Assembly (NCBI GenBank): GCA_965247685.1
Contig: OZ252021.1
Coordinates: 930,001 to 962,000, forward strand
Origin: Bdellovibrionales bacterium
GTDB lineage: Bacteria; Bdellovibrionota; Bdellovibrionia; Bdellovibrionales; UBA1609
DNA length: 32,000 bases
Direction of reading: 5' to 3'
Positions 8,428 through 32,000 of the stretch are shown one piece after another (within the stretch, counting starts at the first letter, position 1; the number at the start of each line of letters is the position of its first letter). The translations under genes and the position numbers were made by a program. The notes beneath the pieces are model-generated. The model worked only from the letters and a program-made list of their open reading frames with translations, searched no databases and had not been told where the DNA came from.

Positions 8428-8429
8428 TT

Positions 8430-11620: not shown

Positions 11621-11647
11621 TGAAATGTAATTTTTACACTCTTTTTT

Positions 11648-11676
11648 TTGACATTTTTGAGCTTTTTATTCATAAT
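11648..11676 (+). promoter_or_regulatory. Near-consensus sigma70-type promoter (TTGACA-N17-CATAAT) for the first LRR paralog
   Basis: TTGACA at 11648-11653, an exact 17-nt spacer, and CATAAT at 11671-11676, 69 nt upstream of the ATG at 11745. RBS AAGGA lies 6 nt before the ATG. The promoter sits just outside the left edge of the tandem repeat (11679). Confidence 0.45.
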
Positions 11677-11678
11677 AA

Positions 11679-13306
11679 TAGTTAACTCACTTTTCAGTTA
11701 TGTTAGGCTAGGTTTAACAACCTTTTTCTAAGCAAGGATTTTAAATGAAATTTTTATCTTTACTTTTGGTTTTATTTTTTATCTCTTCTTCTTTTGCAAA
11801 GCTGTCGATTTGCCAACTGCCAATAGGGATGCAGGATTCTATTGATTGGTCTCTTAGAGAAAATGTACTTACAGAAAAAGAATATAATGAATTAATCGAA
11901 AAATATAATACTCAAGGATGTTCTGCTTTTGACCCATACCTTCATAGAGTGGACTATATTTTCTATGGTAGCTCTGAGATGAACGGTGAATCAGGAAAAA
12001 TAGCACTTAAGTTGGAAAATAAAACTCTTTTACACTTTCCTAACTTAAAGGGAGTGACTATTCGTACCGATCAATCACAGATACCAGAAACTCTTCTTCA
12101 TGGGCTTCCTCATTTAACATATGCTAGAATTGAAGGGGACAATATCGAGACTATACCGACCAAGCTTTTCGCCCAGAATCCACAGCTTCTTGAATTTAGA
12201 ATACATAGTAAAGTATTTAGAGGCATTTCCGATTCTGAGTTTTTTAAACAGATTCCTTTGGTTCAGGTGTTAGGTTTAGTACCAGCTCGGGGAGTCAATG
12301 GAAATTGGCCTGATGATCTATGTGATCATAATAAATGGCTTAATGTCTTGCTTATTGGCTATGAAGATGGCGTGAATAAGTTTCCGTCTTCTTGTTGTTA
12401 TGAAAGGCAATTCCAAATATTTGGAGAACATGGAGCGATTGGTGCTGGAGGTTTTGATGGTCTTTCTAAACTCTGCAACTCTCTCAAAACCCTTAATCGT
12501 GATCCAACCTAGTTAACTCACTTTTAAGTTATGTTAGGCTAGGTTTAACAACCTTTTTCTAAGCAAGGATTTTAAATGAAATTTTTATCTCTTCTTCTTT
12601 TGCGAAGGTATCGTTTTGCCAACTGCCAGATGAGATGGTGTTTTCCATTGAAATATCTCTTAGGGACACACTTACAGAAAAAGAATATAATGAATTAATC
12701 GAAAAATATAATACTCAAGGATGTTCTGCTATTGACCCATACCTTAATAGAGTGGACTTTATTAGATATTATAGCTCTGAGATGAATGGTGAATCAGGAA
12801 AAATAGCTTTTAAGTTGGAAAATAAAACTCTTTTACACTTTCCTAATTTAAAGGGAGTGACAATTCGCACCGATCAATCACAGATACCAGAAACTCTTTT
12901 TCATGGGCTTCCTCATTTAACATATGCTAGAATTGAAGGGGACAATATCGAGACTATACCGACGAAGCTTTTCGCCCAGAATCCACAGCTTCTTGAATTT
13001 AGAATACATAGTAAAGTATTTAGAGGCATTTCCGATTCTGAGTTTTTTAAACAGATTCCTTTGGTTCAGGTGTTAAGTTTAGCACCAGCTTGGGGAGTCA
13101 ATGGAAATTGGCCTGATGATCTATGTGATCATAATAAATGGCTTAATGCTTTGTTTATTGGCTATCAAGATGGCGTGAATAAGTTTCCGTCTTCTTGTTG
13201 TTATGAAAGACAATTCCAAATATTTAACAAACATGGAGCGATGGAGTCTGGAGGTGATGGTACTCTTTCTAAATACTGCAACTCTCTCAAAACCCTTAAT
13301 CCAACC
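11679..13306. repeat. Direct tandem duplication, unit 831 nt (copy 1: 11679-12509; copy 2: 12510-13306, 797 nt after deletions)
   Basis: Both copies start with TAGTTAACTCAC...GTTAGGCTAGGTTTAACAACCTTTTTCTAAGCAAGGATTTTAAATGAAATTTTTATCT and stay collinear through the whole LRR gene. Copy 2 differs by a 25-nt, a 3-nt and a net 6-nt deletion plus scattered substitutions. Confidence 0.95.
11745..12512 (+). CDS. Secreted Cys-containing leucine-rich-repeat (LRR)-like protein, paralog 1
   Basis: Signal peptide MKFLSLLLVLFFISSSFA. LRR-like periodicity in LLHFPNLKGVTIRTDQSQIPETLLHGLPHLTYARIEGDNIETIPTKLFAQNPQLLEFRIHS. It has its own promoter-like site and RBS. Confidence 0.7.
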   Translation: MKFLSLLLVLFFISSSFAKLSICQLPIGMQDSIDWSLRENVLTEKEYNELIEKYNTQGCSAFDPYLHRVDYIFYGSSEMNGESGKIALKLENKTLLHFPNLKGVTIRTDQSQIPETLLHGLPHLTYARIEGDNIETIPTKLFAQNPQLLEFRIHSKVFRGISDSEFFKQIPLVQVLGLVPARGVNGNWPDDLCDHNKWLNVLLIGYEDGVNKFPSSCCYERQFQIFGEHGAIGAGGFDGLSKLCNSLKTLNRDPT

Positions 13307-13309
13307 TAA
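12576..13309 (+). pseudogene. LRR-like paralog 2, frameshifted at the signal peptide (or a leaderless 224-aa product from the ATG at 12635)
   Basis: The ancestral ATG (12576) and RBS are retained. A 25-nt deletion inside the leader means this ATG now opens only a 40-codon frame ending at TAA 12696-12698. The conserved body is read in another frame (ORF 12635-13309). Confidence 0.6.
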
Positions 13310-13625
13310 GAAAGAACTTCTCGCACCTAGCTTATCAAAATCTTTTTGTCATACCGTATAATGATGATGTACCTGTCAGAGAAAAACTAAGAGCTTAAAG
13401 GTAGACGATACAAAAATAAAAAAACTCAGAACAAGGCACCACTTCTTTTGCATGACCTGACTGAAGATCATCTCTTATTTGTCAATAAAGGTGACATATA
13501 ACCCCTCTTTTTTCATAAAGCTGTTATAAAAAAAATCAAAAAAAATTAGGAGTGCAGTGGAACTTATTTTGAAGTAAGATCAAAAATAAGGTATAAACCA
13601 AATGAAGAACAGATGAGGTCAAAAT

Positions 13626-14630
13626 ATGATTTGGGAAAATTCTTTGGCTCTTTGGACTCTTGTTCCTTTTGCTGTTTTATTGGTTTATATCCTTTTTTTT
13701 CAAAAGAAGAACAAAGTTTTAATGCAGTGGAGCTCTTTGGAAAAATGGCCAACTCGTTATTTTTCTTTTCGAGTGTTTTTTGGCCCCATTCCCTTTATTT
13801 TACAACTCATTGCTGTTTTTTTAATGGTATTAGCTTTAGCACGTCCTCAAAAGACAAGCGAACTTCGTTCTCGATCTCTTGAGGGAATAGATATTATGAT
13901 GGTCGTGGATATTTCTTTCAGTATGATGGTGCCAGATATGTCTCCAGGGACTCGTTTATCAGCTTCTCAAGATGTCCTTCGTCAGTTTATCGATGGTTTA
14001 TTATCAGATCGAATGGGTTTGATTTTATTTTCAGGCGAATCGTATACGAAAGTTCCTCTCACTTTAGATTATAATTTGCTGAAAGACACCATTGATCACA
14101 TCGAAACCACCTCAGATATTCAACAAGGGACCGCAATAGGAGTAGCGTTAGCCAATGCTGTGGCTCGCCTCAGACACTCTAATGCAAAAAGTCGAGTGAT
14201 TGTGTTACTCACAGATGGAGAGAATAATGCAGGCAATATTAGTCCTCAAACAGCTATTTCACTTGCGAAAAACTATGGTATAAAAATTTATTCAATAGGT
14301 ATAGGATCTCAAAAAAGATCACGAATTCCTATTAAAACAAAAGATATCTTGGGAAGAGAAAAAATAGTTTATCAAATTATTGATAGTCAGGTGAATAAGA
14401 AATTGTTGTCAGATATTTCTCATCAAACTCAAGGAAAGTTTTATTTAGCTAAGAGTTTAACAAATTTGAAAGATATTTTTTCAGAAATTAGCTCATTAGA
14501 AAAAAGCAGCATTGAAGTCTCTTCCTTTGTTTCTCGTGTGGAAAAATTTCAAGACTATTTAAAACCAGCTTTTTGGCTACTAGTCTTATCCTTGATACTA
14601 TCCGTGACTGTATTTGGAAGGGTGATATGA
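13626..14630 (+). CDS. batA: BatA-like vWA-domain membrane protein
   Basis: Two N-terminal TM helices followed by RPQ. vWA MIDAS DISFSM and the LLTDGENN strand. C-terminal TM helix. RBS GAGGT lies 6 nt upstream of the ATG. Confidence 0.85.
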   Translation: MIWENSLALWTLVPFAVLLVYILFFQKKNKVLMQWSSLEKWPTRYFSFRVFFGPIPFILQLIAVFLMVLALARPQKTSELRSRSLEGIDIMMVVDISFSMMVPDMSPGTRLSASQDVLRQFIDGLLSDRMGLILFSGESYTKVPLTLDYNLLKDTIDHIETTSDIQQGTAIGVALANAVARLRHSNAKSRVIVLLTDGENNAGNISPQTAISLAKNYGIKIYSIGIGSQKRSRIPIKTKDILGREKIVYQIIDSQVNKKLLSDISHQTQGKFYLAKSLTNLKDIFSEISSLEKSSIEVSSFVSRVEKFQDYLKPAFWLLVLSLILSVTVFGRVI

Positions 14631-15658
14631 AAACTTTTATTTTTGCTGACCCCTCTTATTTATGGTTTTTGTTTTTGATTCCTATTCTTATAGGTCTTTT
14701 TCTTATGATGTTTTACTGGAGAAGAAAAAAGTTTTTAAAATTTGTGCACTCTGAAAGAATGGAAACTTTAGTTCCAAAGTTTTCTTTTTTAAGAAAATTG
14801 ATGCGCTATACCTTTGCTCTTCTTTCTATCATGTTTTTAATATTGGCATGGTCTCGTCCTCAAAGATTGAATCAAAAAGTTTTAAAAAAATCAAAAGGAC
14901 TTGAAATTATTTTAATGGTGGATGTGTCACAAAGTATGTTGGTGTCTGATGTTTCTCCAAATAGACTTTATGTGATGAAATCTCAGCTGAATCGTTTTGT
15001 CGAGAGTTCAAGAGGGCGTCATCGTATAGGTCTTATTGCCTTTGCAGGTTCTGCTTTTTTTATTTCTCCTCTCACTCAGGACTTAAACTTAATTCAAAAT
15101 TATTTAACCACTTTATCTGTAGATATAGTGAGCCATCAAGGAACAAACTTTAAGTCCGCTTTAACAAGAGTGGAAAAAGCTTTTCAAGGGGGATCTTTAA
15201 ATAAGGAAGAGATAGCTCGTGTTTTAATCATTGCATCCGATGGAGAAGACCATGAAGTGGGAGCATTAGAGAAAGTGCGCTTGCTCAGTGAACAAGGTAT
15301 TCATATTTTTACTTTAGGGTTTGGAACTAAGGAGGGAGGTTTAGTCCCTTTATCAACAGATGCGAGCAAAGAAAATTACCAAAAGAATGCTCAAGGTCAA
15401 GTTGTCCGATCTCAATTCAAATCTCGAATTTTAAAAGAGTTTGCAAAAATAGGAAAAGGTGTTTTTTATCATGTGACTTCTTCTTCTTCTAATGTAGTGG
15501 AACAGTTACAGCAGGACTTGGATCGTTTTCAACAAATCTCATTCAAAACGAAAAACTCCTTGCAGCATCAAGAGCTTTATATGTATTTTTTAATGGTGAG
15601 CTTGTTTTTCTTCTTTCTTTACCTAGGGATGAGTGAGACACGGAGTGTGAAAACATGA
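14627..15658 (+). CDS. batB: BatB-like vWA-domain membrane protein
   Basis: MKTFIFADPSYLWFLFLIPILIGLF... then RPQ. MIDAS DVSQSM and IASDGEDH. C-terminal TM helix. The ATG at 14627 overlaps the batA stop (ATGA), which I prefer over the upstream ATG at 14573 given in the ORF track. Confidence 0.85.
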   Translation: MKTFIFADPSYLWFLFLIPILIGLFLMMFYWRRKKFLKFVHSERMETLVPKFSFLRKLMRYTFALLSIMFLILAWSRPQRLNQKVLKKSKGLEIILMVDVSQSMLVSDVSPNRLYVMKSQLNRFVESSRGRHRIGLIAFAGSAFFISPLTQDLNLIQNYLTTLSVDIVSHQGTNFKSALTRVEKAFQGGSLNKEEIARVLIIASDGEDHEVGALEKVRLLSEQGIHIFTLGFGTKEGGLVPLSTDASKENYQKNAQGQVVRSQFKSRILKEFAKIGKGVFYHVTSSSSNVVEQLQQDLDRFQQISFKTKNSLQHQELYMYFLMVSLFFFFLYLGMSETRSVKT

Positions 15659-16371
15659 ATCGAAAGGAATGGATACTGATTTCTTTTTGCAGTGCGATTT
15701 TAGTGTTCTTAGTTGCTTTTTATTTTTATAACTTCTTTTCTTTTTCTGCAGGTCTTAGCCATTTCAAGCAGGGAAACTATAAAGAAGCAAAAAAAGAATT
15801 CTTGAATGTTTTGTCTCAAGAACCTTTTTTATATCCTGCTCGTTTGAACTTAGGTTTAATTCATTCATTGATGAAAGATTTTAAAAGTGCTCTAGGAGAG
15901 TACAAGGTGGTGTTTGAAGAGTCTTCTCGTTCAGAGGAGCGATTTCAGGCTTATTTTAACTCGGCCTATTTAAAAACTTTAAAAGGAGATCAAAAAGAAG
16001 AAGCTTTGTATGACTATCAGCAAGCTCTGAAGGAAAATCCGAATTCTATAGAGGCGAAAACAAATATTGAATTATTGATGAAGCATTCTCAAGAGTCTCA
16101 ACCCAATAAATCTCAAAAAGATCAAAAACAAAATCAGAAGCAAGATTCTCAAACTGCAAAGGATCCAGAGGATTCTTCTCAAGGCTCATCTAAAACAGAA
16201 GAACAGTCTCAAGAAGAAAATATTAATAAAAAAGATGGAAGTTTAGAATCTAGTGAAGGATTAAGTGCCGAACAAATGAAATGGATCTTAGAAGAACTTG
16301 AAAATAGAGAAAGAAAACTAAGGACAAAATTGCAAGAATCTCAAAAAGGTCGTAGAGGTAAAGCATGGTAA
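15655..16371 (+). CDS. batC: BatC-like TPR-repeat membrane-anchored protein with an acidic, Gln/Ser-rich tail
   Basis: N-terminal TM helix. TPR-like segments (GNYKEAKKEFLNVLSQEPFLYPARLNLGLIH; EEALYDYQQALKENPNSIEAKTNIELL). ATGA overlap with batB. Confidence 0.7.
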   Translation: MNRKEWILISFCSAILVFLVAFYFYNFFSFSAGLSHFKQGNYKEAKKEFLNVLSQEPFLYPARLNLGLIHSLMKDFKSALGEYKVVFEESSRSEERFQAYFNSAYLKTLKGDQKEEALYDYQQALKENPNSIEAKTNIELLMKHSQESQPNKSQKDQKQNQKQDSQTAKDPEDSSQGSSKTEEQSQEENINKKDGSLESSEGLSAEQMKWILEELENRERKLRTKLQESQKGRRGKAW

Positions 16372-18143
16372 GAGGGATAGCTTTATTTTTTCTATTCAGT
16401 ATTTCCTTTGCAAAGGCTGTTCAAGTCACAGCTCAGGTTTCTCCTCAAGAGGTGCAGCCTGAGGATTCCGTAGTCTTCACGATACGCGTTTCTTTAGAAG
16501 GGAATGAATCGGTGGAGTCTCCCCAGCTTCCAGAAGACTTAGATGTGCAGTCGCAGAGTCAGTCCGAACAGGTGACCCATTCTTTTTCATCTATTTCAGG
16601 GACTCAAAAAACGATCAATAAAAGTTTTCAATATTACCTCATCAGCCCAGCTCAAGAAGGTCTATGGACTATCGATTCCGCTTCTATTCAAGTAGGAGGC
16701 AAAATGTATAAGACTCAGCCCTTGAAGGTGACTGTTTCTAAAAATGCAAAGAGTAAACCTCAAAGTCCTTCTTTTGGTCCTTTTGATCTGTTTTCCAATA
16801 AGTACCCCCCTGTTCTTTTTCCAAACAAGAAAATTCCCTCAAAAGAGAATATGAAGTTAAAATCTTTTGCCCCCTCTCGCCCCGTTTATCTTTATGAAAG
16901 GGTTCCTGTTGAATGGTTTTTATATAAATTTGTGAATGATCCTTTCTCTCTGAATTTAACGAATCGGGAATTAGTGCAGCCTGAAAACTTTTGGACTGAA
17001 GTTTTGAGTGCTCCTCAAGATTTAAGATTTACAGAAAAGGAAAAAATTGGTCAGAAAGAATATTTAAAATCTTTAATTTTATCTTATGTTTTTTTCCCTT
17101 TAAAGACAGGGAAACTCACGATCGATCCGCTGAAAATTGAGCTTCAAGTGATTAATCGTAATTTGTTTTTTGCTTTGAATTTCGATCGATTTACCCTGCA
17201 AGATAAACCTTTGATCATGGAAGTTATTCCTTTACCCTCTAGAGGAAGAGGAGAGTTTACAGGTGCTGTAGGATCGTTCATCATCAGTGCGCAGAAAGTG
17301 AAGAAAGAAATTCAAAAAAATGATCTCTTATCTTATAAAATTCTTTTTGAAGGGGAGGGATTAGTTCAAAATATTAAATTGCCTGCTTGGCCTACATCTT
17401 CGGACTTTAAAGTTTATGATATATTGGAATCTCAAAACTTTTCGGCAAAAAAAAGTTGGAAGGAATTTGAAGTTTTACTCTCTGCGAAACGTACGGGTGT
17501 TCTTCAGATTCCAGAATTTTATTGGACAACCTTTGATCCAGAACTCAAAAGTTATGTGACTCAATATATTGAATCTCAAAAGGTAAAGGTGCGTCAGGGC
17601 TTATCGGCAAAAAAAACGGAAAAAGAAAGTTATTTGAGTCCAAGCAATGAAGCTTCTTCTTCTGTACCTCAAAAAAAATATGATATTCAACCTATAGACA
17701 CACATCTTTCTTTTTATAAGAGATATAAGAACTGGATATGGGTAAGTCTTTATATTTTTATTTTGTTGGGAATTCTTTATAAAAACAGATTTCGTAAAAC
17801 GTCTAAGAGAAATTTAAAGAAAATTTATCAAAAGGCCTATCAGCTTTGTCAGCAAGAGCAGTATCAAGATGTAGGGACTCTTCTCTTAAATTTAGTGGAT
17901 CAAATCTGGTTAGAAATTTCAGGTACAGGGGGTCGAGAATTGGAAAAGCTTTTAGAAAAATGTCCTCCAAGTATGCGACATGAGTTTGGCGTCAAGATTC
18001 AAAATTTAGTACAAAATTTAGAAAATTTAAGCTTTGCACCTCAGCATAACATAGAATATCAAAAAAAATGGAATGACCAGAAAGTGAAGGAGCAAATTCA
18101 AAACTGTGAAGAACTTGTACGGCATCTCCTTCAGCTAAGATAA
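16365..18143 (+). CDS. batD: BatD-like protein
   Basis: 592 aa. Signal peptide MVRGIALFFLFSISFAKA, a long beta-rich ectodomain, one C-terminal TM helix (WIWVSLYIFILLGILY) and a helical tail. Its position after batA-B-C matches the canonical bat order. It overlaps the batC end by 7 nt. Confidence 0.7.
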   Translation: MVRGIALFFLFSISFAKAVQVTAQVSPQEVQPEDSVVFTIRVSLEGNESVESPQLPEDLDVQSQSQSEQVTHSFSSISGTQKTINKSFQYYLISPAQEGLWTIDSASIQVGGKMYKTQPLKVTVSKNAKSKPQSPSFGPFDLFSNKYPPVLFPNKKIPSKENMKLKSFAPSRPVYLYERVPVEWFLYKFVNDPFSLNLTNRELVQPENFWTEVLSAPQDLRFTEKEKIGQKEYLKSLILSYVFFPLKTGKLTIDPLKIELQVINRNLFFALNFDRFTLQDKPLIMEVIPLPSRGRGEFTGAVGSFIISAQKVKKEIQKNDLLSYKILFEGEGLVQNIKLPAWPTSSDFKVYDILESQNFSAKKSWKEFEVLLSAKRTGVLQIPEFYWTTFDPELKSYVTQYIESQKVKVRQGLSAKKTEKESYLSPSNEASSSVPQKKYDIQPIDTHLSFYKRYKNWIWVSLYIFILLGILYKNRFRKTSKRNLKKIYQKAYQLCQQEQYQDVGTLLLNLVDQIWLEISGTGGRELEKLLEKCPPSMRHEFGVKIQNLVQNLENLSFAPQHNIEYQKKWNDQKVKEQIQNCEELVRHLLQLR

Positions 18144-23187: not shown

Positions 23188-24192
23188 GTGGGTGGTTTTT
23201 TTATTCGAAAGTTTCTACTTTCTTCTCGGTTTGGTTTTTTGGTTCTCGCTGGAGTTTTATTAGTCTTTACTATCTTTCAACATAAGAAAAATGAAGAGGT
23301 AGAAGAACAAGAAAGAAAAGATTCTTTAGTGTTTAATTCCAATTTTCAAGATATAAAACGTATTTCTATTCAAACTTTAAATGAGCAGGTTTTTGTTGCA
23401 GAAAAAGAAAAAGATGATTGGATGATTCTTCGTCCTATTCGTGAATTTGCATCCGCAATCAAAATAGAAGATTTTATTGATCGCTTGTTGAATCAAGAAG
23501 CTCAACTTGTGCTGAGTGAAGATGTTTCTTGGCCTGAGTATGATTTAAGTCCTCCTTTTTCTGTGATTGAAATTCAGACTGCGAATCAAAAAAAATCCTT
23601 AGGTATTTCTTCTGAACCAAATTATGAGGGTCAATTTTATATTCAAGATGGGAAAAATCTTCTTATTGGCTCTTCAGATTGGGAGCGGTTTTCTCAACTC
23701 AATTTTCATGACTATAGTAGTAAAAAACTTTATCACTCTTCAAAAGATCCAGTTCAAATCACTTATAAGATGGATCGTGTAGAGTATAAATTTAAAAAAA
23801 ATAAAGAGAAGTGGGAATGGGTCGGAAAGAAACGTTTTCCTCTTTCTCAACAAGCGATTGAAGATTGGCTTAGTTTGTTTCGACAAGATATGATCGCATC
23901 ATTTACAAATAATGAAAAATCAAACAATGAAAAAAAGAACTTAAAAGCAGATTTGACTGTAGAGTTTCGTTTTGAGAATCAATCTACTCCTTGGTTTTTA
24001 AAGTTTCAATCTGTTTCGGAAGCTCGAGATCAAGTGATTGTTTCGGATCGCCCTTATGTATACGAATTGAAAAAAAAACATGGTTTAATGAATGTGGATT
24101 TTCAAGAACACCCACCTTCGAAGAAAGAAACTAAAGATGTTAAAGGTTCTGCTACAAAATCCGACGATGCTCCAAAAAAGAATTCTAAGTAA
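23188..24192 (+). CDS. DUF4340-like membrane-anchored protein (usual partner of GldG-type systems)
   Basis: N-terminal TM helix (FGFLVLAGVLLVFTIF) and a repetitive beta-rich body. Its position immediately after the gldG-like gene supports the call. RBS AGGAG lies 7 nt before the GTG. The family call rests mainly on synteny. Confidence 0.5.
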   Translation: MGGFFIRKFLLSSRFGFLVLAGVLLVFTIFQHKKNEEVEEQERKDSLVFNSNFQDIKRISIQTLNEQVFVAEKEKDDWMILRPIREFASAIKIEDFIDRLLNQEAQLVLSEDVSWPEYDLSPPFSVIEIQTANQKKSLGISSEPNYEGQFYIQDGKNLLIGSSDWERFSQLNFHDYSSKKLYHSSKDPVQITYKMDRVEYKFKKNKEKWEWVGKKRFPLSQQAIEDWLSLFRQDMIASFTNNEKSNNEKKNLKADLTVEFRFENQSTPWFLKFQSVSEARDQVIVSDRPYVYELKKKHGLMNVDFQEHPPSKKETKDVKGSATKSDDAPKKNSK

Positions 24193-24274
24193 TGTATTCG
24201 TGCTTTAGTGTCGATATCTTTGCTTGTTCTATATCTTATTTTATTGTAGTGTAGCCTAAAAACCTAAGAAAAAT

Positions 24275-24961
24275 ATGACTGCTCAACCTATTTTAAAAGC
24301 TCGAAATATTCATAAGGAGTTTCACCAAGGCTCTCAAGTTTTACATGTACTCAAAGGCTTGGACTTTGAAATTCAGCAAGGGGATGCTGTATGTATTGTA
24401 GGTCCTTCAGGAGCAGGAAAGAGTACTTTTCTACATATTCTAGGTGTTTTAGAAGACAGCACTCAGGGAAGTGTATTTTATAAAACTCAAAACTTATCTC
24501 AATCCAACGAGAAAGATAAAGCTTTATTTCGAAGAAAAAAAGTTGGATTTGTGTTTCAATTTCACTATTTACTCAATGAGTTTAATATGATAGAGAATAT
24601 TATGATTGCTGGTCAAATCGGAGGAATGGAAGTTCAAGAGGCTCGACAAAGAGCTCAATATTTAATGGATCTTTTAGGTATCAGTCATCGTCAAGATCAT
24701 TTTCCTAATACTATGAGTGGTGGAGAAAGACAAAGGGCTGCGATTGCTCGTGCGATGATGAATCAACCTGAAATTTTATTAGTAGATGAACCTACGGGGA
24801 CGTTGGATAAAAAAAATTCCATTAAAGTATTAGATATTTTATTTGAGATGAAGGCGCGACTCTGTTTAACATTGGTTGCTGTCAGTCATGATCCTTTATT
24901 TTCAAAACCTTTCCCTAAAATTTTAACGATGGAAGATGGTCAATGGCTCAACAGCAAATGA
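24275..24961 (+). CDS. lolD: LolD/MacB-type ABC ATP-binding protein
   Basis: Walker A GPSGAGKST, signature MSGGERQRAAIARAM, Walker B LLVDEPTGTLD, 228 aa. No cognate LolC/E-type permease is present in the window. Confidence 0.75.
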   Translation: MTAQPILKARNIHKEFHQGSQVLHVLKGLDFEIQQGDAVCIVGPSGAGKSTFLHILGVLEDSTQGSVFYKTQNLSQSNEKDKALFRRKKVGFVFQFHYLLNEFNMIENIMIAGQIGGMEVQEARQRAQYLMDLLGISHRQDHFPNTMSGGERQRAAIARAMMNQPEILLVDEPTGTLDKKNSIKVLDILFEMKARLCLTLVAVSHDPLFSKPFPKILTMEDGQWLNSK

Positions 24962-27504
24962 ATCTGAACATTTCGAAATACTTAGGACTCTTTTTTGTAT
25001 TTGTACTGTGTGCAGAGGTGATGGCCTCTTCTGCGGTTTATCGAGTTCGTATTCAAGGTCAAAAAGAAATTACTCAACAGGCTATCCGTGGACAACTTCA
25101 AACTCGCTCAGGTCGAAAACTTCGTTCGACTGTGGTGACCGAAGATGTAAAACGTTTATATCAAATGGGTTATTTTAGTCATATTTCTGTAGATTCTCAT
25201 AAAGATGCTAAAGCTCGTCTCATTGTGACTTTCAAAGTGAAAGAAAAACCAAGGGTGAAATCTATAAGTTATAAAGGTTACTCTTCATTAACTAAGGCGA
25301 AGCTCGAAGAGATGTCTGAACTTAAAGAATATGAATTTTTGAGTATTATAAAATTAAAAACAGCTATTAAAAATATTGAAAATTATTATAAAGAAAAAGG
25401 GTATTTCTTAGCACAAGTCACCTACTCCTTGAAAGAAGTTCCATCCACTCGAAAAGTTGAAGTGGTGATTCATATTACAGAAGGAGAGAAGGCTTTAATA
25501 AAAAGAATTTTCTTTGTAGGTAATGAAAGTATTTCTAGTTCTCGATTGAAATCTTTTTTGATTAATAAGGAAAAAAGTATTTTTAGTTTTATTTCTGATT
25601 CTGGAACATACAAGGAAGAAAACTTGTCTAGAGATTTACAAGTGATCAAATTGATCTATATGGAACAGGGTTATATGGAAGCTTATGTGGGCGAGCCTCA
25701 AGTCACTTTATCTCCGGCACAAGATGGCATCTATATTACTTTTTTTATTCGAGAAGGATCTCAATTTAAAGTTGGGAACATTGATTTTACGGGGGATCTT
25801 ATTTTTTCTAAATCAGACCTTCAAAGGGTACTCTCTTTAAAAAATGGAGATACTTTTGTTTATTCCTATTTTCAAAAAGATTTATTGTCGCTGCAAAATA
25901 AGTATGGTGATGAGGGTTATGCTTTTACTAATGTGATTCCTCGATTTGCTTCGGTGGATGATGAAATACATATTTTATTTAAAATAGAAAAAGGAGATTT
26001 AGCTTCGATTAATCAAATCAATGTTATAGGTAATGACTATACTAGAGATAAAGTGATTCGAAGAGAAATTGGAGTTTATGAAGGAGAACTTTATAACTCT
26101 TCTCTTATTTCGGGGTCTCAGCAGGCGATACAACGGCTTGGTTATTTTGACAATGTTTCGATATTACCTCAGCCGGTAAAAAATCAAAATAATAAAATAG
26201 ATTTAGAGGTTTCAGTTAAAGAAAGAGAAACTTACGGCGAATTTGGTGGAGGTGTGAATTATCGGCAACAGGATGAGAAGTTTTGGAGTTTAGAAAATTT
26301 AGGTGTTAATGCTTCTCTTCATAAGCAAAACATTTTTGGTTTAGGTCAAACTATCCGAGGAAGTGCAAATTTGAATTTTGTGACCATTTGGTTGAATATT
26401 CAATATATAGATCCTCATATATTCGATTCAGATTGGTATGCTAGTTTCGAACTTTTTTATGAAAACTCAGAATTGAGCCAATCCTTAAGGACAAACTTAA
26501 AAGATTATTTAAGTGATTCGTCGTCTTCAAATAAAACTGCTCAAAATAATTCAGAAAAATCATCCGAAGAATCAGAGACAGATCATCCATATCCACTTCT
26601 TTCTGGAAGACCTTACATTATTGAACGAAGGGGTTTTCGATTTGCTTTAGGTTATTGGCTGAAAGATAAATGGAAAATACTGCCAAATGTAGGTTTTATG
26701 GATATGAATATGAGAGAATTGACAGAAAGTCTTTTGATAGGGGTTGGTTCCAGTGTTCGTGAAAGTTTTCAACTAGATGCCTCTGAGGGGTCTCGTGCTT
26801 TAATAGGAGGCTCTGTAGAGTATAATGGAAAAAATGACTCTCTTTTTCCTACAGAAGGGATTCATACTCGGTTGGCCTCAGATTATATTTATAAGTTCCC
26901 TTCTTCTGAATTTCATGCTGTCAATTTGTTCAAAATCGATGGGTTTTTCAGTCATTATGTGAATCTTCAGGATTTATTTTCCTACTTGAATCTAAGCTCT
27001 TTCAAATGGGCGAATTACTTGGCTCATGTCACATTAAAGAATAAGGTGCAGTATGGTCATGTGATCTCATTGGATTCAAATTCATTTATTCCTGTGGATC
27101 TTCTATATCTACTGGGAGGACCTTTAGATTTAAGAGGGTACTCTCTGCTTTCTATAGGAAAATCTATTCGTATTCCAAGACCTAATGGAGAGTTACCTCC
27201 TTATTCTGTTCCTTATGGAGGGGCTCAGCAATGGGTTTATAATTTAGAGTTGCAATTTCCTATTTTGTTAAGAAGCCGCCTTTATGGGATGCTATTTTTT
27301 GGTGTAGGACAAGCAGAGGATTTGTTATTTCAAAAAATTTTCAAAAAAGGCTGGAGTATTTTGAAAAAAGACGTTGGAGTGGGCATTTCTTGGGCTTCTC
27401 CCATGGGTCCTGTACACTTGAAACTTGGATTTCCCATTGGTGATAGTCAAAAAGATTTTTTTGAAGACAAAGAATTTCATTTCAATGTTGGCTATGACTT
27501 TTAG
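24943..27504 (+). CDS. bamA: Outer membrane protein assembly factor BamA (POTRA domains plus Omp85 beta-barrel)
   Basis: Signal peptide, then POTRA-like starts (VYRVRIQGQKEITQQAI, IKRIFFVGNESISSSRL, VGNIDFTGDLIFSKSDL, INQINVIGNDYTRDKVI). Barrel with a loop-6-type LDLRGY motif and a C-terminal FHFNVGYDF. The ATG at 24958 (ATGA overlap with the lolD stop) is an equally plausible start. Confidence 0.9.
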   Translation: MAQQQMNLNISKYLGLFFVFVLCAEVMASSAVYRVRIQGQKEITQQAIRGQLQTRSGRKLRSTVVTEDVKRLYQMGYFSHISVDSHKDAKARLIVTFKVKEKPRVKSISYKGYSSLTKAKLEEMSELKEYEFLSIIKLKTAIKNIENYYKEKGYFLAQVTYSLKEVPSTRKVEVVIHITEGEKALIKRIFFVGNESISSSRLKSFLINKEKSIFSFISDSGTYKEENLSRDLQVIKLIYMEQGYMEAYVGEPQVTLSPAQDGIYITFFIREGSQFKVGNIDFTGDLIFSKSDLQRVLSLKNGDTFVYSYFQKDLLSLQNKYGDEGYAFTNVIPRFASVDDEIHILFKIEKGDLASINQINVIGNDYTRDKVIRREIGVYEGELYNSSLISGSQQAIQRLGYFDNVSILPQPVKNQNNKIDLEVSVKERETYGEFGGGVNYRQQDEKFWSLENLGVNASLHKQNIFGLGQTIRGSANLNFVTIWLNIQYIDPHIFDSDWYASFELFYENSELSQSLRTNLKDYLSDSSSSNKTAQNNSEKSSEESETDHPYPLLSGRPYIIERRGFRFALGYWLKDKWKILPNVGFMDMNMRELTESLLIGVGSSVRESFQLDASEGSRALIGGSVEYNGKNDSLFPTEGIHTRLASDYIYKFPSSEFHAVNLFKIDGFFSHYVNLQDLFSYLNLSSFKWANYLAHVTLKNKVQYGHVISLDSNSFIPVDLLYLLGGPLDLRGYSLLSIGKSIRIPRPNGELPPYSVPYGGAQQWVYNLELQFPILLRSRLYGMLFFGVGQAEDLLFQKIFKKGWSILKKDVGVGISWASPMGPVHLKLGFPIGDSQKDFFEDKEFHFNVGYDF

Positions 27505-29138
27505 TTGATTTTTCTCATATTTTCGTTTAGCTTGTATTTTGATTTTTATAGGGGGAATGATAATGATAAAATATATTTTAATTTCTTTTTTAGTTCTTAA
27601 CTGTGCGTCCGTTTTTGCAAATGTAGGTTATGTTGATTTTGATCAAGTTTTGAAAAAAACTAAAGGTGGCAAGTCCATTAAAGAAAGAGAAACTCACGGC
27701 GAAATTGGCGTAGGTGTGAACTATCAGCAACGGGGTGAGAAGCTTGGGAGTGTAGAAAATTTTGGTGTTGAAGCTTTTCTTCGGCAAAACATCTTTGGTT
27801 TAGATCAAACTATCCGAGGAAGTGTCAATTTGAATTTTGTGACCACTTCGCTGAATGTTCAATATATAGATCCTCATATATTCGATTCAGATTGGTATGC
27901 TAGTTTCGAAGTTTTGTATGAAAACTCAAAGTGGAGCCAATCCTTAAGGACAAACTTAAAAGATTATTTAAATGATTCATCGTCTTCAAATAAAACTGCT
28001 CAAAATAATTTAGAAAATTCATCCGAAGAATCGGAGACAAATCATCCCTATCTACTTCTTTCTGGAAGACCTTACACTATTGAACGAAGGGGTTTTCGAT
28101 TTGCTTTAGGTTACTGGCTGAAAGATAAATGGAAAATACTGCCAAATGTAGGTTTTATGGATGTGAATATGAGAGAATTGGCAGAAAGTATTTCGATAGG
28201 GCTTGGTTCCAGTGTTCGTGAAAATTTTCAACTAGATGCCTCTGAGGGGTTTCGTGCTTTAATAGGAGGCTCTGTAGAGTATAATGGAAAAAATGACTCT
28301 CTTTTTCCTACAGAAGGGATTCATACTCGGTTGGTCTCAGACTATATTTATAAATTCCCTTCTTCTGAATTTCATGCTGTCAATTTGTTCAAAATCGATG
28401 GGTCTTTCAGTCATTATGTGAATCTTCAGGATTTATTTTCCTACTTGAATCTAAGCTCTTTCAAATGGGCGAATTACTTGGCTCATGTCACATTAAAGAA
28501 TAAGGTGCAGTATGGTCATGTGATCTCATTGGATTCAAATTCATTTATTCCTGTGGATCTTCTATATCTACTGGGAGGACCTTTAGATTTAAGAGGGTAC
28601 TCTCTGCTTTCTATAGGAAAATCTATTCGTATTCCAAGACCTAATGGAGAGTTACCTCCTTATTCTGTTCCTTATGGAGGGGCTCAGCAATGGGTTTATA
28701 ATTTAGAGTTGCAATTTCCTATTTTGTTAAGAAGTCGCCTTTATGGGATGCTATTTTTTGATGTAGGACAAGCAGATGATTTGTTATTTCAAAAAATTTT
28801 CAAAAAAGGCTGGAGTATTTTGAAAAAAGACGTTGGAGTGGGTGTTTCTTGGGCTTCTCCCATAGGTCCTTTACACTTGAAACTTGGATTTCCCATCGGT
28901 GATAGTCAAAAAGATTTTTTTGAAGACAAAGAATTTCATTTCAATATTAGCTATGATTTTTAGTTGATTTTTCTCATATTTTCGTTTAGCTTGTATTTTG
29001 ATTTTTTATAGGGGGAATGATAATGATAAAACATATTTTAATTTCTTTTTTGGTTCTTAACTGTGCGTCCGTTTTTGCAAATGTAGGTTATGTTGATTTT
29101 GATCAAGTTTTGAAAAAGACTAAAGGTGGCAAGTCCAT
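26218..29138. repeat. Direct tandem duplication, unit ~1.46 kb (copy A 26218-27679; copy B 27680-29138)
   Basis: Copy A is the bamA barrel-coding part, the 52-nt spacer and the first 41 codons of skp. Copy B repeats all of this collinearly. The offset is 1462 nt at the left edge, 1459 after a 3-nt deletion, and 1460 after a 1-nt spacer indel. It includes a 330-nt identical tract. Confidence 0.95.
27557..28963 (+). CDS. Chimeric Skp-leader::BamA-barrel protein (predicted POTRA-less Omp85-family outer membrane protein)
   Basis: The first 41 codons (MIMIKYILISFLVLNCASVFANVGYVDFDQVLKKTKGGKSI) are nearly identical to the skp 5' end. They are fused in frame at 27679/27680 to KERETHGEIGVGVNY..., homologous to BamA from the KERETYGEFGGGVNY segment to its C-terminus. 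Intact 468-aa frame with the same GGGGGA RBS as skp. The ORF-track TTG at 27539 is less likely. Confidence 0.8.
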   Translation: MIMIKYILISFLVLNCASVFANVGYVDFDQVLKKTKGGKSIKERETHGEIGVGVNYQQRGEKLGSVENFGVEAFLRQNIFGLDQTIRGSVNLNFVTTSLNVQYIDPHIFDSDWYASFEVLYENSKWSQSLRTNLKDYLNDSSSSNKTAQNNLENSSEESETNHPYLLLSGRPYTIERRGFRFALGYWLKDKWKILPNVGFMDVNMRELAESISIGLGSSVRENFQLDASEGFRALIGGSVEYNGKNDSLFPTEGIHTRLVSDYIYKFPSSEFHAVNLFKIDGSFSHYVNLQDLFSYLNLSSFKWANYLAHVTLKNKVQYGHVISLDSNSFIPVDLLYLLGGPLDLRGYSLLSIGKSIRIPRPNGELPPYSVPYGGAQQWVYNLELQFPILLRSRLYGMLFFDVGQADDLLFQKIFKKGWSILKKDVGVGVSWASPIGPLHLKLGFPIGDSQKDFFEDKEFHFNISYDF

Positions 29139-29517
29139 AACTAGTCGATTCGAAAAAGAAGTGATAAAAAAACAAGGTGAGTTACAAAAGCAAGAAAAAT
29201 CTATTCAAAAAGAAAAAGACAAATTAGACGCAGAAATTAATTTACTTTCTGATTCAGAAAAAAGAAACCGCGCACAAAAATTTCAAATGCGTATTGCAGG
29301 TTATGAAAGACTTAAGGTGAATTTTCAAAAAGAACTGAGTGAGTATCAACAAAAACTTGTTTTTGGGATTGTTAAAAATTTAAAACCTGTAGTTCGAAAA
29401 ATTGCTAAAGAGAAAAAATATACAGCAGTAAAAAGGCTTTCTCCAGATACTTTGTGGGTGGATCCTTCTTTGGATATAACTAAAGAAGTCATTAAGGCCT
29501 ACAATAAGAAGTATTAA
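29017..29517 (+). CDS. skp: Skp/OmpH-family periplasmic chaperone
   Basis: Signal peptide ILISFLVLNCASVFA. About 145-aa mature protein rich in K/E/Q coiled-coil sequence (FEKEVIKKQGELQKQEKSIQKEKDKLDAEINLL). Classic position downstream of bamA. Confidence 0.8.
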   Translation: MIMIKHILISFLVLNCASVFANVGYVDFDQVLKKTKGGKSITSRFEKEVIKKQGELQKQEKSIQKEKDKLDAEINLLSDSEKRNRAQKFQMRIAGYERLKVNFQKELSEYQQKLVFGIVKNLKPVVRKIAKEKKYTAVKRLSPDTLWVDPSLDITKEVIKAYNKKY

Positions 29518-29539
29518 TTTCATCGCCTAAAAAAATACA

Positions 29540-30475
29540 ATGAAAGTTTACAGTAACCACTCTTTGTACGATGGGGAGACTCCTTGTGCTTTAACATTGG
29601 GAACTTTTGATGGAGTTCACCTAGGTCATCAAAAAGTTATCAAGCAAATGGTTCAATATGCTCAAAAGCATTCTTGTCCTGCGGTATTGTTTACTTTTGA
29701 CTCTCATCCACTGGAATGGACTCAACCTGAATCGGGTGTAAAACGTTTGTTTTCTATTGACGAATTGAGCCGAAATATGGATTCGGCTGGAGTTCATCAT
29801 CTGATTATTCAGAAGTTTTCAAAAGGATTTTCTGAAATATCAGCTTCTGTTTTTTTTGAAAAATATGTTTATGAAATTTTTAAGCCTGCTTGTATTTTTG
29901 CAGGTTACGATCTGAAATTTGGTCGAAATAGACAGGGAAATATTGAATTTTTAAAAAAATATGCCCAAAAATTTTCTTTTCAAGTGCAAGAAGTGAATCC
30001 TGAGTATTTGGATGGAAAAATTATCTCCAGCTCTCGGATCAGGGAAGCTTTTCATCAATCCGATTTTGAGAAAATTCATCAACTGAGAGGGCAGCCTTTT
30101 TCTTTTGAAGGAGAGGTGGTTTCTGGCGCTGATAGAGGAACTAGAATTGGGTTTCCCACAGCTAATATTCAAACTTTGTGCACTTTACCCCAAACAGGTG
30201 TCTATATTTGTCAACTTTTTGTACATAATCATACCTACCATGGGGTTATGAATATTGGGGTGAATCCCACATTTGAATCTTCCCATCCATCTGGAGAGCT
30301 CAAGGTAGAAGTTCACCTGCTCAACCAAGAAAAGCTGTCTTTAAGAGGGCAAAAAGCACTCATTTTTGTTTTGAAACGATTAAGGAGCGAGAAAAAATTC
30401 AAAGATATTCCTTCTTTGCAAAGTCAAATCAAATCCGATATCCAAAAAGCCCATATTTACTTCAGTAAAAAATAA
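29540..30475 (+). CDS. ribF: Bifunctional riboflavin kinase / FMN adenylyltransferase
   Basis: N-terminal nucleotidyltransferase motif GTFDGVHLGHQ. Riboflavin-kinase motifs GADRGTRIGFPTANI and GVMNIGVNPTF. 311 aa. Confidence 0.9.
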   Translation: MKVYSNHSLYDGETPCALTLGTFDGVHLGHQKVIKQMVQYAQKHSCPAVLFTFDSHPLEWTQPESGVKRLFSIDELSRNMDSAGVHHLIIQKFSKGFSEISASVFFEKYVYEIFKPACIFAGYDLKFGRNRQGNIEFLKKYAQKFSFQVQEVNPEYLDGKIISSSRIREAFHQSDFEKIHQLRGQPFSFEGEVVSGADRGTRIGFPTANIQTLCTLPQTGVYICQLFVHNHTYHGVMNIGVNPTFESSHPSGELKVEVHLLNQEKLSLRGQKALIFVLKRLRSEKKFKDIPSLQSQIKSDIQKAHIYFSKK

Positions 30476-30533
30476 GTTTTATCTCAATATTTGTCAAAAA
30501 GAAACCGATAGCCTCAAAGAAGGTGTGCATATT

Positions 30534-32000
30534 ATGTCAGGATTAGCTCAAAAAAAAAAGACAAATAATATTGGTGAACTTCTTGTTCAGAAAAATATCA
30601 TACCTAAAAGTCAACTTCTAGAGTTGCAGAAAAAATCCGGCTATAAAAATCAAAATGTATTATCCGTTTTATTGGAATCTGGTCATGTTTCTGAAAAAGA
30701 GATGGTTCATTTTTTATCGGAACAATATAGCTATCAAGTGGTTGAATTAGATAATTTTGATATTTCAAAAGATATTATTAAATTAGTACCTCAAAAGTTT
30801 TGTGAAAAATTTGATGTCATTCCTATTTCTCGTTTAGGAGATGTTCTTGTTCTAGCTGTATCTAATCCTTTGAATAATCAAGTACTCAAAGATCAGCTTC
30901 TTTTTACAACAGGTTGTAAGGCGGAATTTGTTCTTACCACTTCCAGTTCTATTCGAAATGCTATTGCCAGATGCTATGAAGACGTGGAAGAGAATATTCA
31001 TAGACTTTATGCAGATATTGAGGCTTCGGGTGCACGTTTTCAAAGGAATATGGCGGAACAAGAAGCTGCAGGCGAAAATGAAGATGAAAATGTAGGTATT
31101 GTTTACCTCAATAATAAAGATGAGGAGCCTGTTATTCAATTTGTGAATCGAATGATTACAAGTGCTCAAAACAAAAGAGCGTCAGATATACATATCGAAA
31201 CATATGAAAAATCTTGTCGAATTCGTTTTCGTATTGATGGCAGATTGCATGAAATTTTTAATCCTCAAAAATCTATTTCTAATTTTATTGTGAGTCGTAT
31301 GAAGATTATGTCTAAGTTGGATATTGGTGAGAGAAGAAAACCACAAGACGGAAGAATGAAAGTGAAATTTAAAAATGGAAAAGAACTTTCGTTCCGTGTA
31401 TCGACAACGCCGACTATCGCAGGCGAAAAAATCGTGATGCGGATATTAGATGATACGGCAGTGTCTTATGGTTTAGGAGAGCTTGGAATGAATGAAAGGG
31501 AAGCCGGATTATTTGAAGGTAATTTAAATCGACCTCAGGGTATGGTTCTGATTACTGGACCGACAGGAAGTGGAAAGACGACGACTATCTACACAGGTTT
31601 GAAAATTTTAAATACACCTGACAGAAATATTTCTACTGCAGAAGACCCTATCGAGTATAATATTGAAGGGCTCAATCAAGTACAAATAAATGCTAAAATT
31701 GGCCTCACTTTTGCGAGCACTCTTCGTGCTTTTTTAAGGCAAGATCCAGATGTTATTCTTATTGGTGAGATTCGAGATCATGAAACAGCAGAAATTGCTT
31801 TTAAAGCAGCTGCAACAGGTCACTTAGTGGTGAGTACTTTACACACCAATGATACTCCGTCATCTGTGACTCGATTATTGGATATTGGAATTCCTGATTA
31901 TTCTATTTCTGAGAATGTGAGTCTTGTCGTAGGACAAAGGCTGTTAAGAAGGTTATGTCCGAAGTGTCAAGTTCTTGACTCTACTGTTTCTAAAGAATCT
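30534..32000 (+). CDS. pilB: Type IV pilus assembly ATPase PilB / GspE family; 3' end runs off the window
   Basis: Not in the ORF track because there is no stop before the window end. I translated it manually from the ATG at 30534 (RBS GAAGGTG upstream), giving 489 open codons. T2SSE_N-type N-domain (IGELLVQKNIIPKSQLLELQ...), Walker A GPTGSGKTTT, Walker B DPDVILIGEIRD, His box GHLVVSTLHTND, then CPKC. Confidence 0.9.
   Translation, partial: MSGLAQKKKTNNIGELLVQKNIIPKSQLLELQKKSGYKNQNVLSVLLESGHVSEKEMVHFLSEQYSYQVVELDNFDISKDIIKLVPQKFCEKFDVIPISRLGDVLVLAVSNPLNNQVLKDQLLFTTGCKAEFVLTTSSSIRNAIARCYEDVEENIHRLYADIEASGARFQRNMAEQEAAGENEDENVGIVYLNNKDEEPVIQFVNRMITSAQNKRASDIHIETYEKSCRIRFRIDGRLHEIFNPQKSISNFIVSRMKIMSKLDIGERRKPQDGRMKVKFKNGKELSFRVSTTPTIAGEKIVMRILDDTAVSYGLGELGMNEREAGLFEGNLNRPQGMVLITGPTGSGKTTTIYTGLKILNTPDRNISTAEDPIEYNIEGLNQVQINAKIGLTFASTLRAFLRQDPDVILIGEIRDHETAEIAFKAAATGHLVVSTLHTNDTPSSVTRLLDIGIPDYSISENVSLVVGQRLLRRLCPKCQVLDSTVSKES

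Follow-up and report, generated by a model that had tools for sequence, protein, structure and literature searches.

The DNA analysed, referred to below as the window, comprises 32,000 nt from a Bdellovibrionales bacterium (assembly GCA_965247685.1, contig OZ252021.1, positions 930,001-962,000 of the forward strand). The bamA gene (24943-27504) encodes a protein of 853 aa with five POTRA domains (Pfam, E=1.6e-63) followed by an Omp85 domain (E=3.2e-33), and has orthologues in seven relatives. A spacer (27505-27562) carrying a TTGATT-17nt-TAGCTT promoter-like motif and an AGGGGG ribosome-binding site (RBS), both conserved in an alignment of the spacer with those of four relatives, separates bamA from a chimeric gene (27563-28963), the 466-aa product of which is identical to database protein P0001. 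As defined by alignment of the copies, the spacer recurs at 28964-29022, differing by a single T within a T-run only, and precedes the authentic, intact skp (ompH) gene (29023-29517; 164 aa; Pfam OmpH, E=8e-26, 91 bits). All of these features are on the + strand, as are those given below. No terminator was found on this strand between bamA and ribF, nor any RNA family or terminator within 24000-30600. A second tandem duplicate, in which the signal peptide is damaged or deleted, lies at 11679-13301 in the same window.

An earlier note on this DNA had described a head-to-tail, in-frame duplication of ~1.46 kb, and a repeat search, self-BLAST of the window and a check of the reading frame all bear this out. 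A single, collinear direct repeat was found at 26216-27678 and 27678-29138, the two copies being 95.36% identical over 1464 columns with 64 mismatches and 2 gap openings (E=0). This answers the alignment check of 26218-27679 with 27680-29138 that the note had proposed: the copies are collinear, and are diverged rather than identical. In a base-by-base alignment, copy 2 lacks 3 nt opposite 26321-26323, which leaves the frame unchanged, and the second indel is the 1-nt difference in the T-run of the non-coding spacer (27543/29002). A divergence of 4.6% between the copies means that the duplication is an old event and no trivial product of assembly.

Copy 1 includes bamA codons 426-853, the stop codon, the 58-nt spacer and the first 39 (or 41) codons of the skp leader. 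The unit was thus correctly said to begin at the barrel region of bamA, with position 26218 being the first base of codon 426 (K of KERET) at the POTRA5/barrel boundary, and sequence and ORF analysis agree with the note that it extends through the bamA stop, the spacer and its RBS into the skp leader. At the novel junction, GGCAAGTCCATT / AAAGAAAGAG, the break falls at 27679/27680, and ..TCCATT/AAAG.. (27678-27681) joins the skp-leader Ile (GGKSI) to Lys426 of bamA, with GGKSIKERETHGEIGVGVNYQQR as the predicted junction peptide. Position 27680 is in the frame of the ATG at 27557, and the fusion point was accordingly given before as skp codon 41. That number holds from ATG 27557, but the likely start is the second ATG (27563 and, for skp itself, 29023), a choice that fits both the Skp length of 164 aa in relatives and the 466-aa gene call in the database, and from there the fusion point is codon 39.

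The locus therefore presents a collinear head-to-tail pair, one novel junction and a single-copy ancestral state in relatives, as expected for a tandem segmental duplication, and a 1.46-kb in-frame tandem duplication within the bamA-skp operon is confirmed as real. Given that microhomology at the breakpoints amounts to 1 nt (T), either replication slippage or illegitimate recombination would have produced the duplication, the unit being ~1,462 bp and the breakpoints lying at bamA codon 425/426 and skp codon 39. A unit that stretches from the linker between POTRA5 and the barrel to just beyond the signal peptide of Skp would have restored both parental genes and created a third between them. 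The finding that bamA (853 aa) and skp (164 aa) are both intact agrees with the earlier statement that a new ORF was made and none destroyed.

The arrangement bamA-skp-ribF without an intervening gene was found in 7 of 7 related genomes, with 164-aa skp orthologues directly downstream of bamA, which settles the synteny question that the note had raised and makes the duplication lineage-specific. A first BamA alignment against species-representative genomes and JGI metagenomes returned no close relatives, and with a broader one the yield was confined to "Bdellovibrionales bacterium" MAGs (46% identity), none with more than a single copy. In the set of the 120 best BamA homologues, no protein other than the chimera lacks POTRA, and no other close barrel-only relative was found among 1.84e9 representatives. 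Two candidates, P0122 and P0123, were rejected as N-truncated fragments that still include POTRA. The chimera is known from one genome, of 1.28 Mb.

The chimeric protein consists of the Skp signal peptide MIKYILISFLVLNCASVFA, with n, h and c regions and a VFA/N site read from the sequence, 18 mature Skp residues, the BamA linker and a complete 16-stranded barrel. Residues 78-468 match Pfam PF01103 (Omp85) with 124.2 bits, above the gathering cutoff of 24. No other Pfam family was matched at E<=0.01, neither POTRA (5 in the parental BamA, 0 in the chimera) nor DUF5982, and there was no match to OmpH (PF03938), the Skp part being confined to the signal peptide and the 18 mature residues. An AF2 model (pLDDT 83, pTM 0.81) shows 16 strands and the L6 hairpin, with residues 1-45 disordered, and in Foldseek its top matches are the barrels of BamA and TamA (probability 1.00, E down to 8e-19); PDB entries 4n75, 6qgx and 7nre are among its structural matches. 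Residues were mapped by the AF2 model and motif positions, as a PDB sequence search yielded only weak TamA matches (E ~1e-7). The (V/I)RG(Y/F) motif at the L6 tip reads LRGY in both bamA and the chimera, and its R346 and G347 do not vary throughout the alignment of 121 sequences. The chimera retains the terminal Phe, and its FFDVG conforms to the (F/G)xDxG lid lock of strand β13, whereas FFGVG in full-length BamA does not. By architecture (signal peptide, ~24 disordered residues, barrel) the chimera is a noNterm Omp85 as defined in PMC4104836; it is not one by descent or by the DUF5982 motif (PMC11358297), its nearest relative being its own BamA with 89% aa identity.

As it inherited the spacer, RBS and signal peptide of skp, the chimera is probably expressed and exported. 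Given its position in the operon, downstream of a complete duplicate of the spacer, it most likely shares the mode of transcription and translation of skp. Export would then most likely be through Sec, with cleavage following VFA, and the resident BAM complex would most likely insert the protein into the outer membrane via the retained C-terminal β-signal-like end.

The differences between the copies (44 transitions and 17 transversions) are graded along the repeat, with 27 within the first 200 nt and none across 330 nt at 26946-27275 (partner 28405-28734), a tract that covers β10-L6-β12. In the 5' third, copy 1 agrees with outgroups at 26 of 27 polarised sites; at 8 sites copy 2 is ancestral and copy 1 derived. 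Polarised non-synonymous and synonymous changes (N:S) number 30:8 in the chimera and 8:4 in bamA (asymmetry p=0.0005), which corresponds to ~4x faster protein change in the chimera. The dN/dS of the chimera is ~1, as compared with a long-term value of ~0.15 for the barrel, and its 30:8 ratio does not differ significantly from the neutral expectation (p=0.29). Codons 426-600 hold 26 of the 30 amino-acid changes in the chimera versus 1 of 8 in bamA (Fisher p=2e-4). These 26 fall in β1-β7, the lateral-gate half, and are densest at the β1-L1-β2 hairpin; overall, the 5' 40% carries chimera-specific changes at ~6-fold the density of the remainder. The 26N:5S of the gate region was considered as a sign of positive selection, and this was not significant against neutrality (p=0.07-0.09).

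The hot spot of divergence in the chimera (27695-27805) takes in turn T1 as well as the β1-L1-β2 hairpin. Within it are the deletion of 3 nt at 27783 and the substitution G468D at 27803-27805, in the NxxGxG turn after β2, where Gly is present in 119 of 119 homologues. A second glycine, at the kink of β16 (position -4) and present in 118 of 118 homologues, is replaced by Ser in the chimera (G850S; AGC at 28949-28951, GGC in bamA at 27490-27492). By position (FNIGKTW versus FNVGYDF) this site would be equivalent to E. coli G807, the phenotypes of which are listed in PMC10135246. A proposed parallel between G436V in the chimera and the darobactin-resistance mutation G429V of E. coli (PMC10135246) was rejected, since column 436 is normally L/V/I (121 sequences) and the invariant Gly 437 is unchanged. 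As judged by these sequence features, the chimera is not conserved as an insertase. The tract without differences is significant by permutation over all sites (p<1e-5) and not over synonymous sites only (p=0.10), and synonymous divergence is roughly 3-fold lower in the 3' part, which suggests that the tract is a candidate for gene conversion or a strongly constrained core. The divergence, the lack of BamA-type constraint on the chimera, its place in a known POTRA-less class and the change of an invariant motif in the parental BamA are additions to the earlier note.

We give about even chances to the reading that the chimera is a young barrel-only (noNterm-type) Omp85 paralogue that has been retained and is no longer a β-barrel insertase. 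It would then be at an early stage of neofunctionalisation, as an outer-membrane barrel with a passive or accessory role, and gene conversion, constraint on the barrel core or the two together would keep its 3' 60% near bamA. Recombination between the copies normally removes unselected tandem duplications fast, and persistence to 5-13% divergence, in a 1.28-Mb genome, thus favours retention of the duplicate. The differences themselves look biological because of the 44:17 transition bias and the presence of only two indels, one of them in frame. Their origin might also be sought in the assembly, if two strain haplotypes or a chimeric read had been joined in tandem, and the source proteins are indeed found on a single contig in databases. 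However, assemblers do not join sequences on an overlap of 1 nt, the in-frame fusion lies at a domain boundary, and the polarised, region-specific differences fit paralogues rather than alleles. Given the transition bias, the polarisation against outgroups and the 1-nt junction homology, an artefact of this kind is unlikely, and we put its probability as very small.

A considerable share of probability, short of an even chance, goes to a real duplication that left a functionless relic, in which the chimeric ORF has yet to acquire a stop or frameshift and has been partly re-copied from bamA. The dN/dS of ~1, statistically the same as in neutral decay, counts against a retained paralogue, as does the loss of two glycines invariant across all homologues, which is the expectation for a decaying copy; the non-synonymous excess in the N-terminal third is not significant. 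The intact ORF is weak evidence of retention, as an ORF would remain open by chance with a probability of 0.16-0.21 after 38-44 random substitutions (~40 are present here) and gene conversion from bamA, with which the identical tract and the lower 3' synonymous divergence are compatible, could keep repairing it. The confinement of the gene to one genome also agrees with a relic, and the duplicate at 11679-13301, with its deleted signal peptide, shows that imperfect duplicates can linger here. Against a relic stand the persistence noted above and the fact that the sole coding indel is a multiple of 3. Furthermore, the breakpoints yield exactly a signal peptide and a whole barrel, an outcome to which we assign a prior of ~0.5% for random breakpoints, and this suggests that selection acted as a filter. 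Retention extends to the L6 motif, the lid-lock motif and the terminal Phe, and the 5' concentration of changes rejects pure uniform neutrality unless gene conversion is invoked.

We regard as improbable a third reading, in which the POTRA-bearing BamA and the barrel-only copy became complementary or interdependent after duplication, for example with the former taking substrates and the latter providing a barrel or membrane-destabilising activity. It is prompted by bamA codon 787 (GGT at 27301-27303), which unexpectedly encodes Gly at the Asp position of the lid lock (D787G); that Asp is shared by the chimera (GAT at 28760-28762) and 119 of 119 homologues. We take this position to be the equivalent of E. 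coli D740. The motif was defined in PMC4490367, and its role is treated in PMC4490367, PMC3871556 and PMC12712708. Two residues derived in bamA, E792 and I815, adjoin site 787 on β13 and β14, and the 8:4 ratio of bamA after duplication is high against the long-term dN/dS of ~0.15 (binomial p ~0.004, our estimate). However, these counts are tiny and dN/dS is inflated on very recent branches, while the gate region of the chimera (β1, β16 Gly) is its most degenerated part. Moreover, 26 nt separate site 787 from the identical tract, and the assembly could for that reason have assigned the variant to the wrong copy. The literature searched yielded no precedent.

From its sequence, the chimera appears to represent the birth of a barrel-only Omp85 protein of putative function. 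Such proteins are widespread, and the origin of one can here be read straight from the DNA: one in-frame tandem duplication captured from skp its signal peptide, its RBS and what is probably its promoter, and harmed neither essential gene. In so young a copy, the parts of the barrel freed first after POTRA loss can be seen, namely the β1-L1-β2 gate hairpin, turn T1 and the β16 glycine, with the L6 motif and lid lock persisting. The value of the case is limited by its being known from a single genome. The locus is a natural test of whether a cell tolerates or benefits from a POTRA-less BamA barrel in vivo, and of whether the lid-lock aspartate is dispensable in full-length BamA. Were the two proteins interdependent, with the aspartate lost from BamA but kept in a chimera that remodelled its lateral-gate hairpin, they would form a natural two-polypeptide BamA machine, or the chimera would be a barrel-only accessory buffering an impaired essential insertase.

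The retained-paralogue reading places the chimera beside the noNterm Omp85 proteins, a described POTRA-less class (Heinz & Lithgow 2014, PMC4104836; Bettin et al. 2024, PMC11358297), and Omp85 subfamilies have been proposed to arise by duplication of BamA (PMC4104836). Shared features are the signal peptide, a short periplasmic tail (~24 residues, as compared with 22-43 aa in Leptospira LIC12252/12254/12258; PMC11358297), the 16-stranded barrel, the L6 RG(Y/F), the absence of POTRA and co-existence with a canonical BamA. However, the known noNterm proteins belong to divergent families of great age, in some cases with DUF5982, and their genes are located apart from bamA, whereas the chimera shares 89% identity with the barrel of its own BamA, lies within the bamA-skp operon and owes its signal peptide to skp.

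Plant Toc75-IV and OEP80tr are similarly POTRA-less products of a recent duplication of a full-length Omp85 and also keep the sequence preceding β1 (Day et al. 2014, PMC4195282). Of the two, Toc75-IV localises to the membrane, and its knockout causes a mild phenotype and is not lethal (PMC4195282). Unlike the chimera, they are encoded in the nucleus of eukaryotes and targeted to organelles, and they lack an in-operon tandem origin and a borrowed signal peptide. The full-length paralogues bamA2 of Pseudomonas (PMC4104836) and BamK of Klebsiella (PMC13059784) are also recent bamA duplicates beside the essential copy, and BamK is reported to be able to replace BamA. In contrast, the chimera is missing the whole POTRA arm and has altered gate residues, and hence would not be expected to substitute for BamA. 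The domain boundary is shared with engineered barrel-only constructs of E. coli BamA (e.g. 4n75, 6qgx, 7nre), which also begin shortly before β1 and in which the barrel folds alone; those are laboratory-made, whereas the chimera is a natural gene.

The bamA-skp region contains one collinear direct repeat, identified both by a repeat search and by self-BLAST of the window, in which 26216-27678 (copy 1) corresponds to 27678-29138 (copy 2). The copies are 95.4% identical over 1,464 alignment columns, with 64 mismatches and two gaps. As judged by base-level alignment, copy 2 lacks 3 nt opposite 26321-26323, a deletion that keeps the frame, and a T-run in the non-coding spacer is longer by one T in one of the copies. 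The novel junction at 27679/27680 reads ..GGCAAGTCCATT|AAAGAAAGAG.. and keeps the frame, with bamA codon 426 beginning at 26218; the peptide spanning it is SIKERETHGEIGVGVNYQQR. As the two breakpoints have only one T in common, the sequence points to duplication by illegitimate recombination or slippage, rather than by homologous exchange. An in-frame head-to-tail tandem duplication had been read from the DNA in an earlier note, and the repeat search, self-BLAST, junction sequence and frame check all agree with that reading, the self-alignment that the note proposed giving collinear segments. Its account did not include the divergence between the copies or the gradient of this divergence, with 27 differences falling within the first 200 nt and none across 26946-27275. 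We consider the duplication, together with its origin and architecture, close to certain.

The bamA gene (24943-27504) encodes an 853-aa protein in which five POTRA domains precede an Omp85 barrel. It is followed by a middle ORF (27563-28963), in which Omp85 is the sole domain and which is referred to here as the chimera, then by skp (from 29023), encoding an OmpH domain, and by ribF. The second ATGs, at 27563 and 29023, are taken as the real starts because Skp in relatives is 164 aa long and the database gene call identical to the chimera (P0001) is 466 aa; both ATGs sit seven bases after AGGGGG. The chimera reads MIKYILISFLVLNCASVFA|NVGYVDFDQVLKKTKGGKSI, then KERETHGEIG... as far as the BamA C-terminus, and consists of a typical Sec signal peptide, 18 mature Skp residues and a junction Ile, the linker between POTRA5 and barrel, and the complete barrel. 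A confident AlphaFold2 model of the chimera, based on an alignment of 121 homologues (pLDDT 83, pTM 0.81), predicts 16 strands and a disordered N-terminal segment of 45 residues, and its top structural matches are the barrels of BamA and TamA. The β5-β6 loop (L3) carries a Ser/Asn/Glu-rich low-complexity insert (26500-26590 and 27960-28050; BamA aa ~520-547), which is variable in length or missing in relatives and is disordered in the model.

Among named relatives, the nearest are 'Bdellovibrionales bacterium' MAGs, whose chromosomes measure 1.0-1.4 Mb; the source contig is 1.28 Mb. The more distant matches are Bdellovibrio BamA. Seven relatives were compared: four (L001-L004) have BamA identities of 65-72%, and three (L005-L007) are at 46%. 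Each has the order lolD-like, bamA, skp, ribF, one barrel only and a spacer of about 55-60 nt, and, as the synteny check suggested in the earlier note now confirms, no gene lies between bamA and skp. The duplication is therefore specific to the source lineage. At synonymous sites the copies have diverged by 0.06 overall and by 0.14 over the first 70 codons, compared with about 1 or more to the closest relative, and the event is thus recent on the scale of the relatives, yet not new. Of the 120 best BamA homologues, only the chimera has no POTRA domain, and 1.84 billion representatives, scanned in full with HMMER, yielded no further close relative of the barrel-only type. Divergence in this clade is much more rapid in the barrel than in the POTRA arm, the identities between the window bamA and L005-L007 being about 35% and 56%, respectively. 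BamA entries in the PDB are barely detectable by sequence with the window bamA, the best match being TamA (E about 1e-7). The first 19 nt of bamA (24943-24961) are shared with the 3' end of the upstream lolD-like ABC ATPase gene. This arrangement, also present in relatives, implies translational coupling and an operon.

The two barrels differ by 16.5 synonymous and 45.5 non-synonymous changes (pairwise dN/dS 0.74). When each difference was polarised with four outgroups, 30 non-synonymous and 8 synonymous changes were assigned to the chimera branch, 8 and 4 to the bamA branch, with 6 and 2 ambiguous; the asymmetry in amino-acid change between chimera and bamA is significant (p=0.0005). The ratio in the chimera fits the neutral expectation (70% non-synonymous; p=0.29) and is far from the long-term dN/dS of orthologues, about 0.15. 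Codons 426-600 hold 26 of the 30 chimera changes but only one of the eight bamA changes (Fisher p=2e-4). Mapped on the model, 16 chimera changes would lie in strands, 11 in extracellular loops (L1, L3 and L4) and three on the periplasmic side; the β1-L1-β2 hairpin alone holds ten. The N-terminal third of the chimera (N:S 26:5, p=0.07) hints at dN/dS above 1, though not significantly. Synonymous sites have diverged about 3-fold more in the 5' third, and the 330-nt identical tract greatly exceeds the length expected by chance when all sites are counted (p<1e-5), though not for synonymous sites alone (p=0.10); these patterns would fit gene conversion in the 3' part, which is plausible but unproven.

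Both copies were compared with 119 homologues at invariant sites. The chimera has lost two glycines. G468D alters the N-x-x-G-x-G turn after β2 at its second Gly, a position with Gly in 119/119; G850S falls in β16, four residues short of the C-terminus, where Gly occurs in 118/118. This second site matches E. coli G807 by position (FNIGKTW versus FNVGYDF). Substitutions at E. coli G807 cause antibiotic sensitisation (PMC10135246). The L6 LRGY, the β13 FFDVG and the terminal Phe are retained in the chimera. There is good support for the view that its product is not being preserved as an insertase of the BamA type. Unexpectedly, the full-length BamA has FFGVG, with Gly at codon 787 (27301-27303), where all 119 homologues and the chimera (28760-28762) have Asp. 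The two copies differ here by G at 27302 against A at 28761. In every solved Omp85 structure this Asp, part of the (F/G)xDxG lid lock, is salt-bridged to the arginine of L6 (PMC4490367); in E. coli it is D740 (PMC3871556, PMC12712708). The bamA-derived residues E792 and I815 lie near this site, on β13 and β14. D787G in the essential bamA copy is the most intriguing loose end; it may reflect drift in a small population or a compensated change, may hint at interplay between the two barrels, or may be a single variant mis-phased beside the identical tract.

No terminator-like site was found on the plus strand from bamA to ribF. The bamA-skp spacer is conserved in five genomes (the window and L001-L004) as TTGATT, 17 nt, TAG(C/G/T)(T/C)T, then AGGGGG (TAGTTGATTTT ... 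TTTAGCTT ... AGGGGG, i.e. TTGATT-17 nt-TAGnnT), and this motif is a candidate internal promoter for skp. The spacer was duplicated whole, its window copies (27505-27562 and 28964-29022) differing by one T, and the chimera consequently has all of the translation signals of skp and possibly its transcription signals too. Judged from these signals, the chimera is probably expressed and exported.

A second tandem duplication lies elsewhere in the window (11679-12498 and 12510-13301, 89.5% identical). What is duplicated there is an entire gene, encoding a secreted Cys-rich protein (11745-12512, 255 aa) with no Pfam match. In copy 2 of this gene, a 25-nt deletion right after ATG AAA removes or frameshifts the signal peptide; the ORF at 12635-13309 (224 aa) is intact, every later indel being a multiple of three. 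The upstream region 6578-18143 is ordinary in appearance and syntenic with relatives, comprising a complete Bat-type operon (MoxR AAA, DUF58, two VWA, TPR, BatD), then an SLT-LysM transglycosylase and a gldA/F/G-like ABC system.

That the repeat was created by the assembly is very improbable, and evidence internal to the sequence argues strongly against it: the copies differ mostly by substitutions with a transition bias (44:17), the junction offers no overlap that an assembler could use, and the polarised differences form a pattern that only paralogues would give. Decay of the chimera is a more serious alternative, a real possibility though a somewhat doubtful one, in keeping with its neutral-looking dN/dS, the two lost glycines and the deleted signal peptide in the neighbouring duplicate (11679-13301). 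The intact ORF is weak evidence on this point, since 38-44 random substitutions would leave an ORF open in 16-21% of cases. Tandem duplicates without selection are, however, usually lost fast, the breakpoints fall so as to give precisely a signal peptide and a complete barrel, the single indel within coding sequence preserves the frame, and the core motifs are kept. For these reasons we lean slightly towards retention of the chimera for a new role, to which we give an even chance.

No account of a tandem duplication within bamA-skp, or of a signal peptide taken over from skp, turned up in a limited literature search. The locus is a real and neat case of gene birth via in-frame tandem duplication. 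The chimera has the same architecture as the noNterm (barrel-only) Omp85 class defined by Heinz and Lithgow (PMC4104836) and studied in Leptospira (PMC11358297). By descent, however, it falls outside these old groups, its nearest relative being its own BamA, and it has no match to DUF5982. Pseudomonas bamA2 and Klebsiella BamK differ from it in being full-length BamA paralogues. The closest evolutionary analogues are Toc75-IV and OEP80tr of Arabidopsis, which are likewise POTRA-less copies that arose via recent duplication (PMC4195282).
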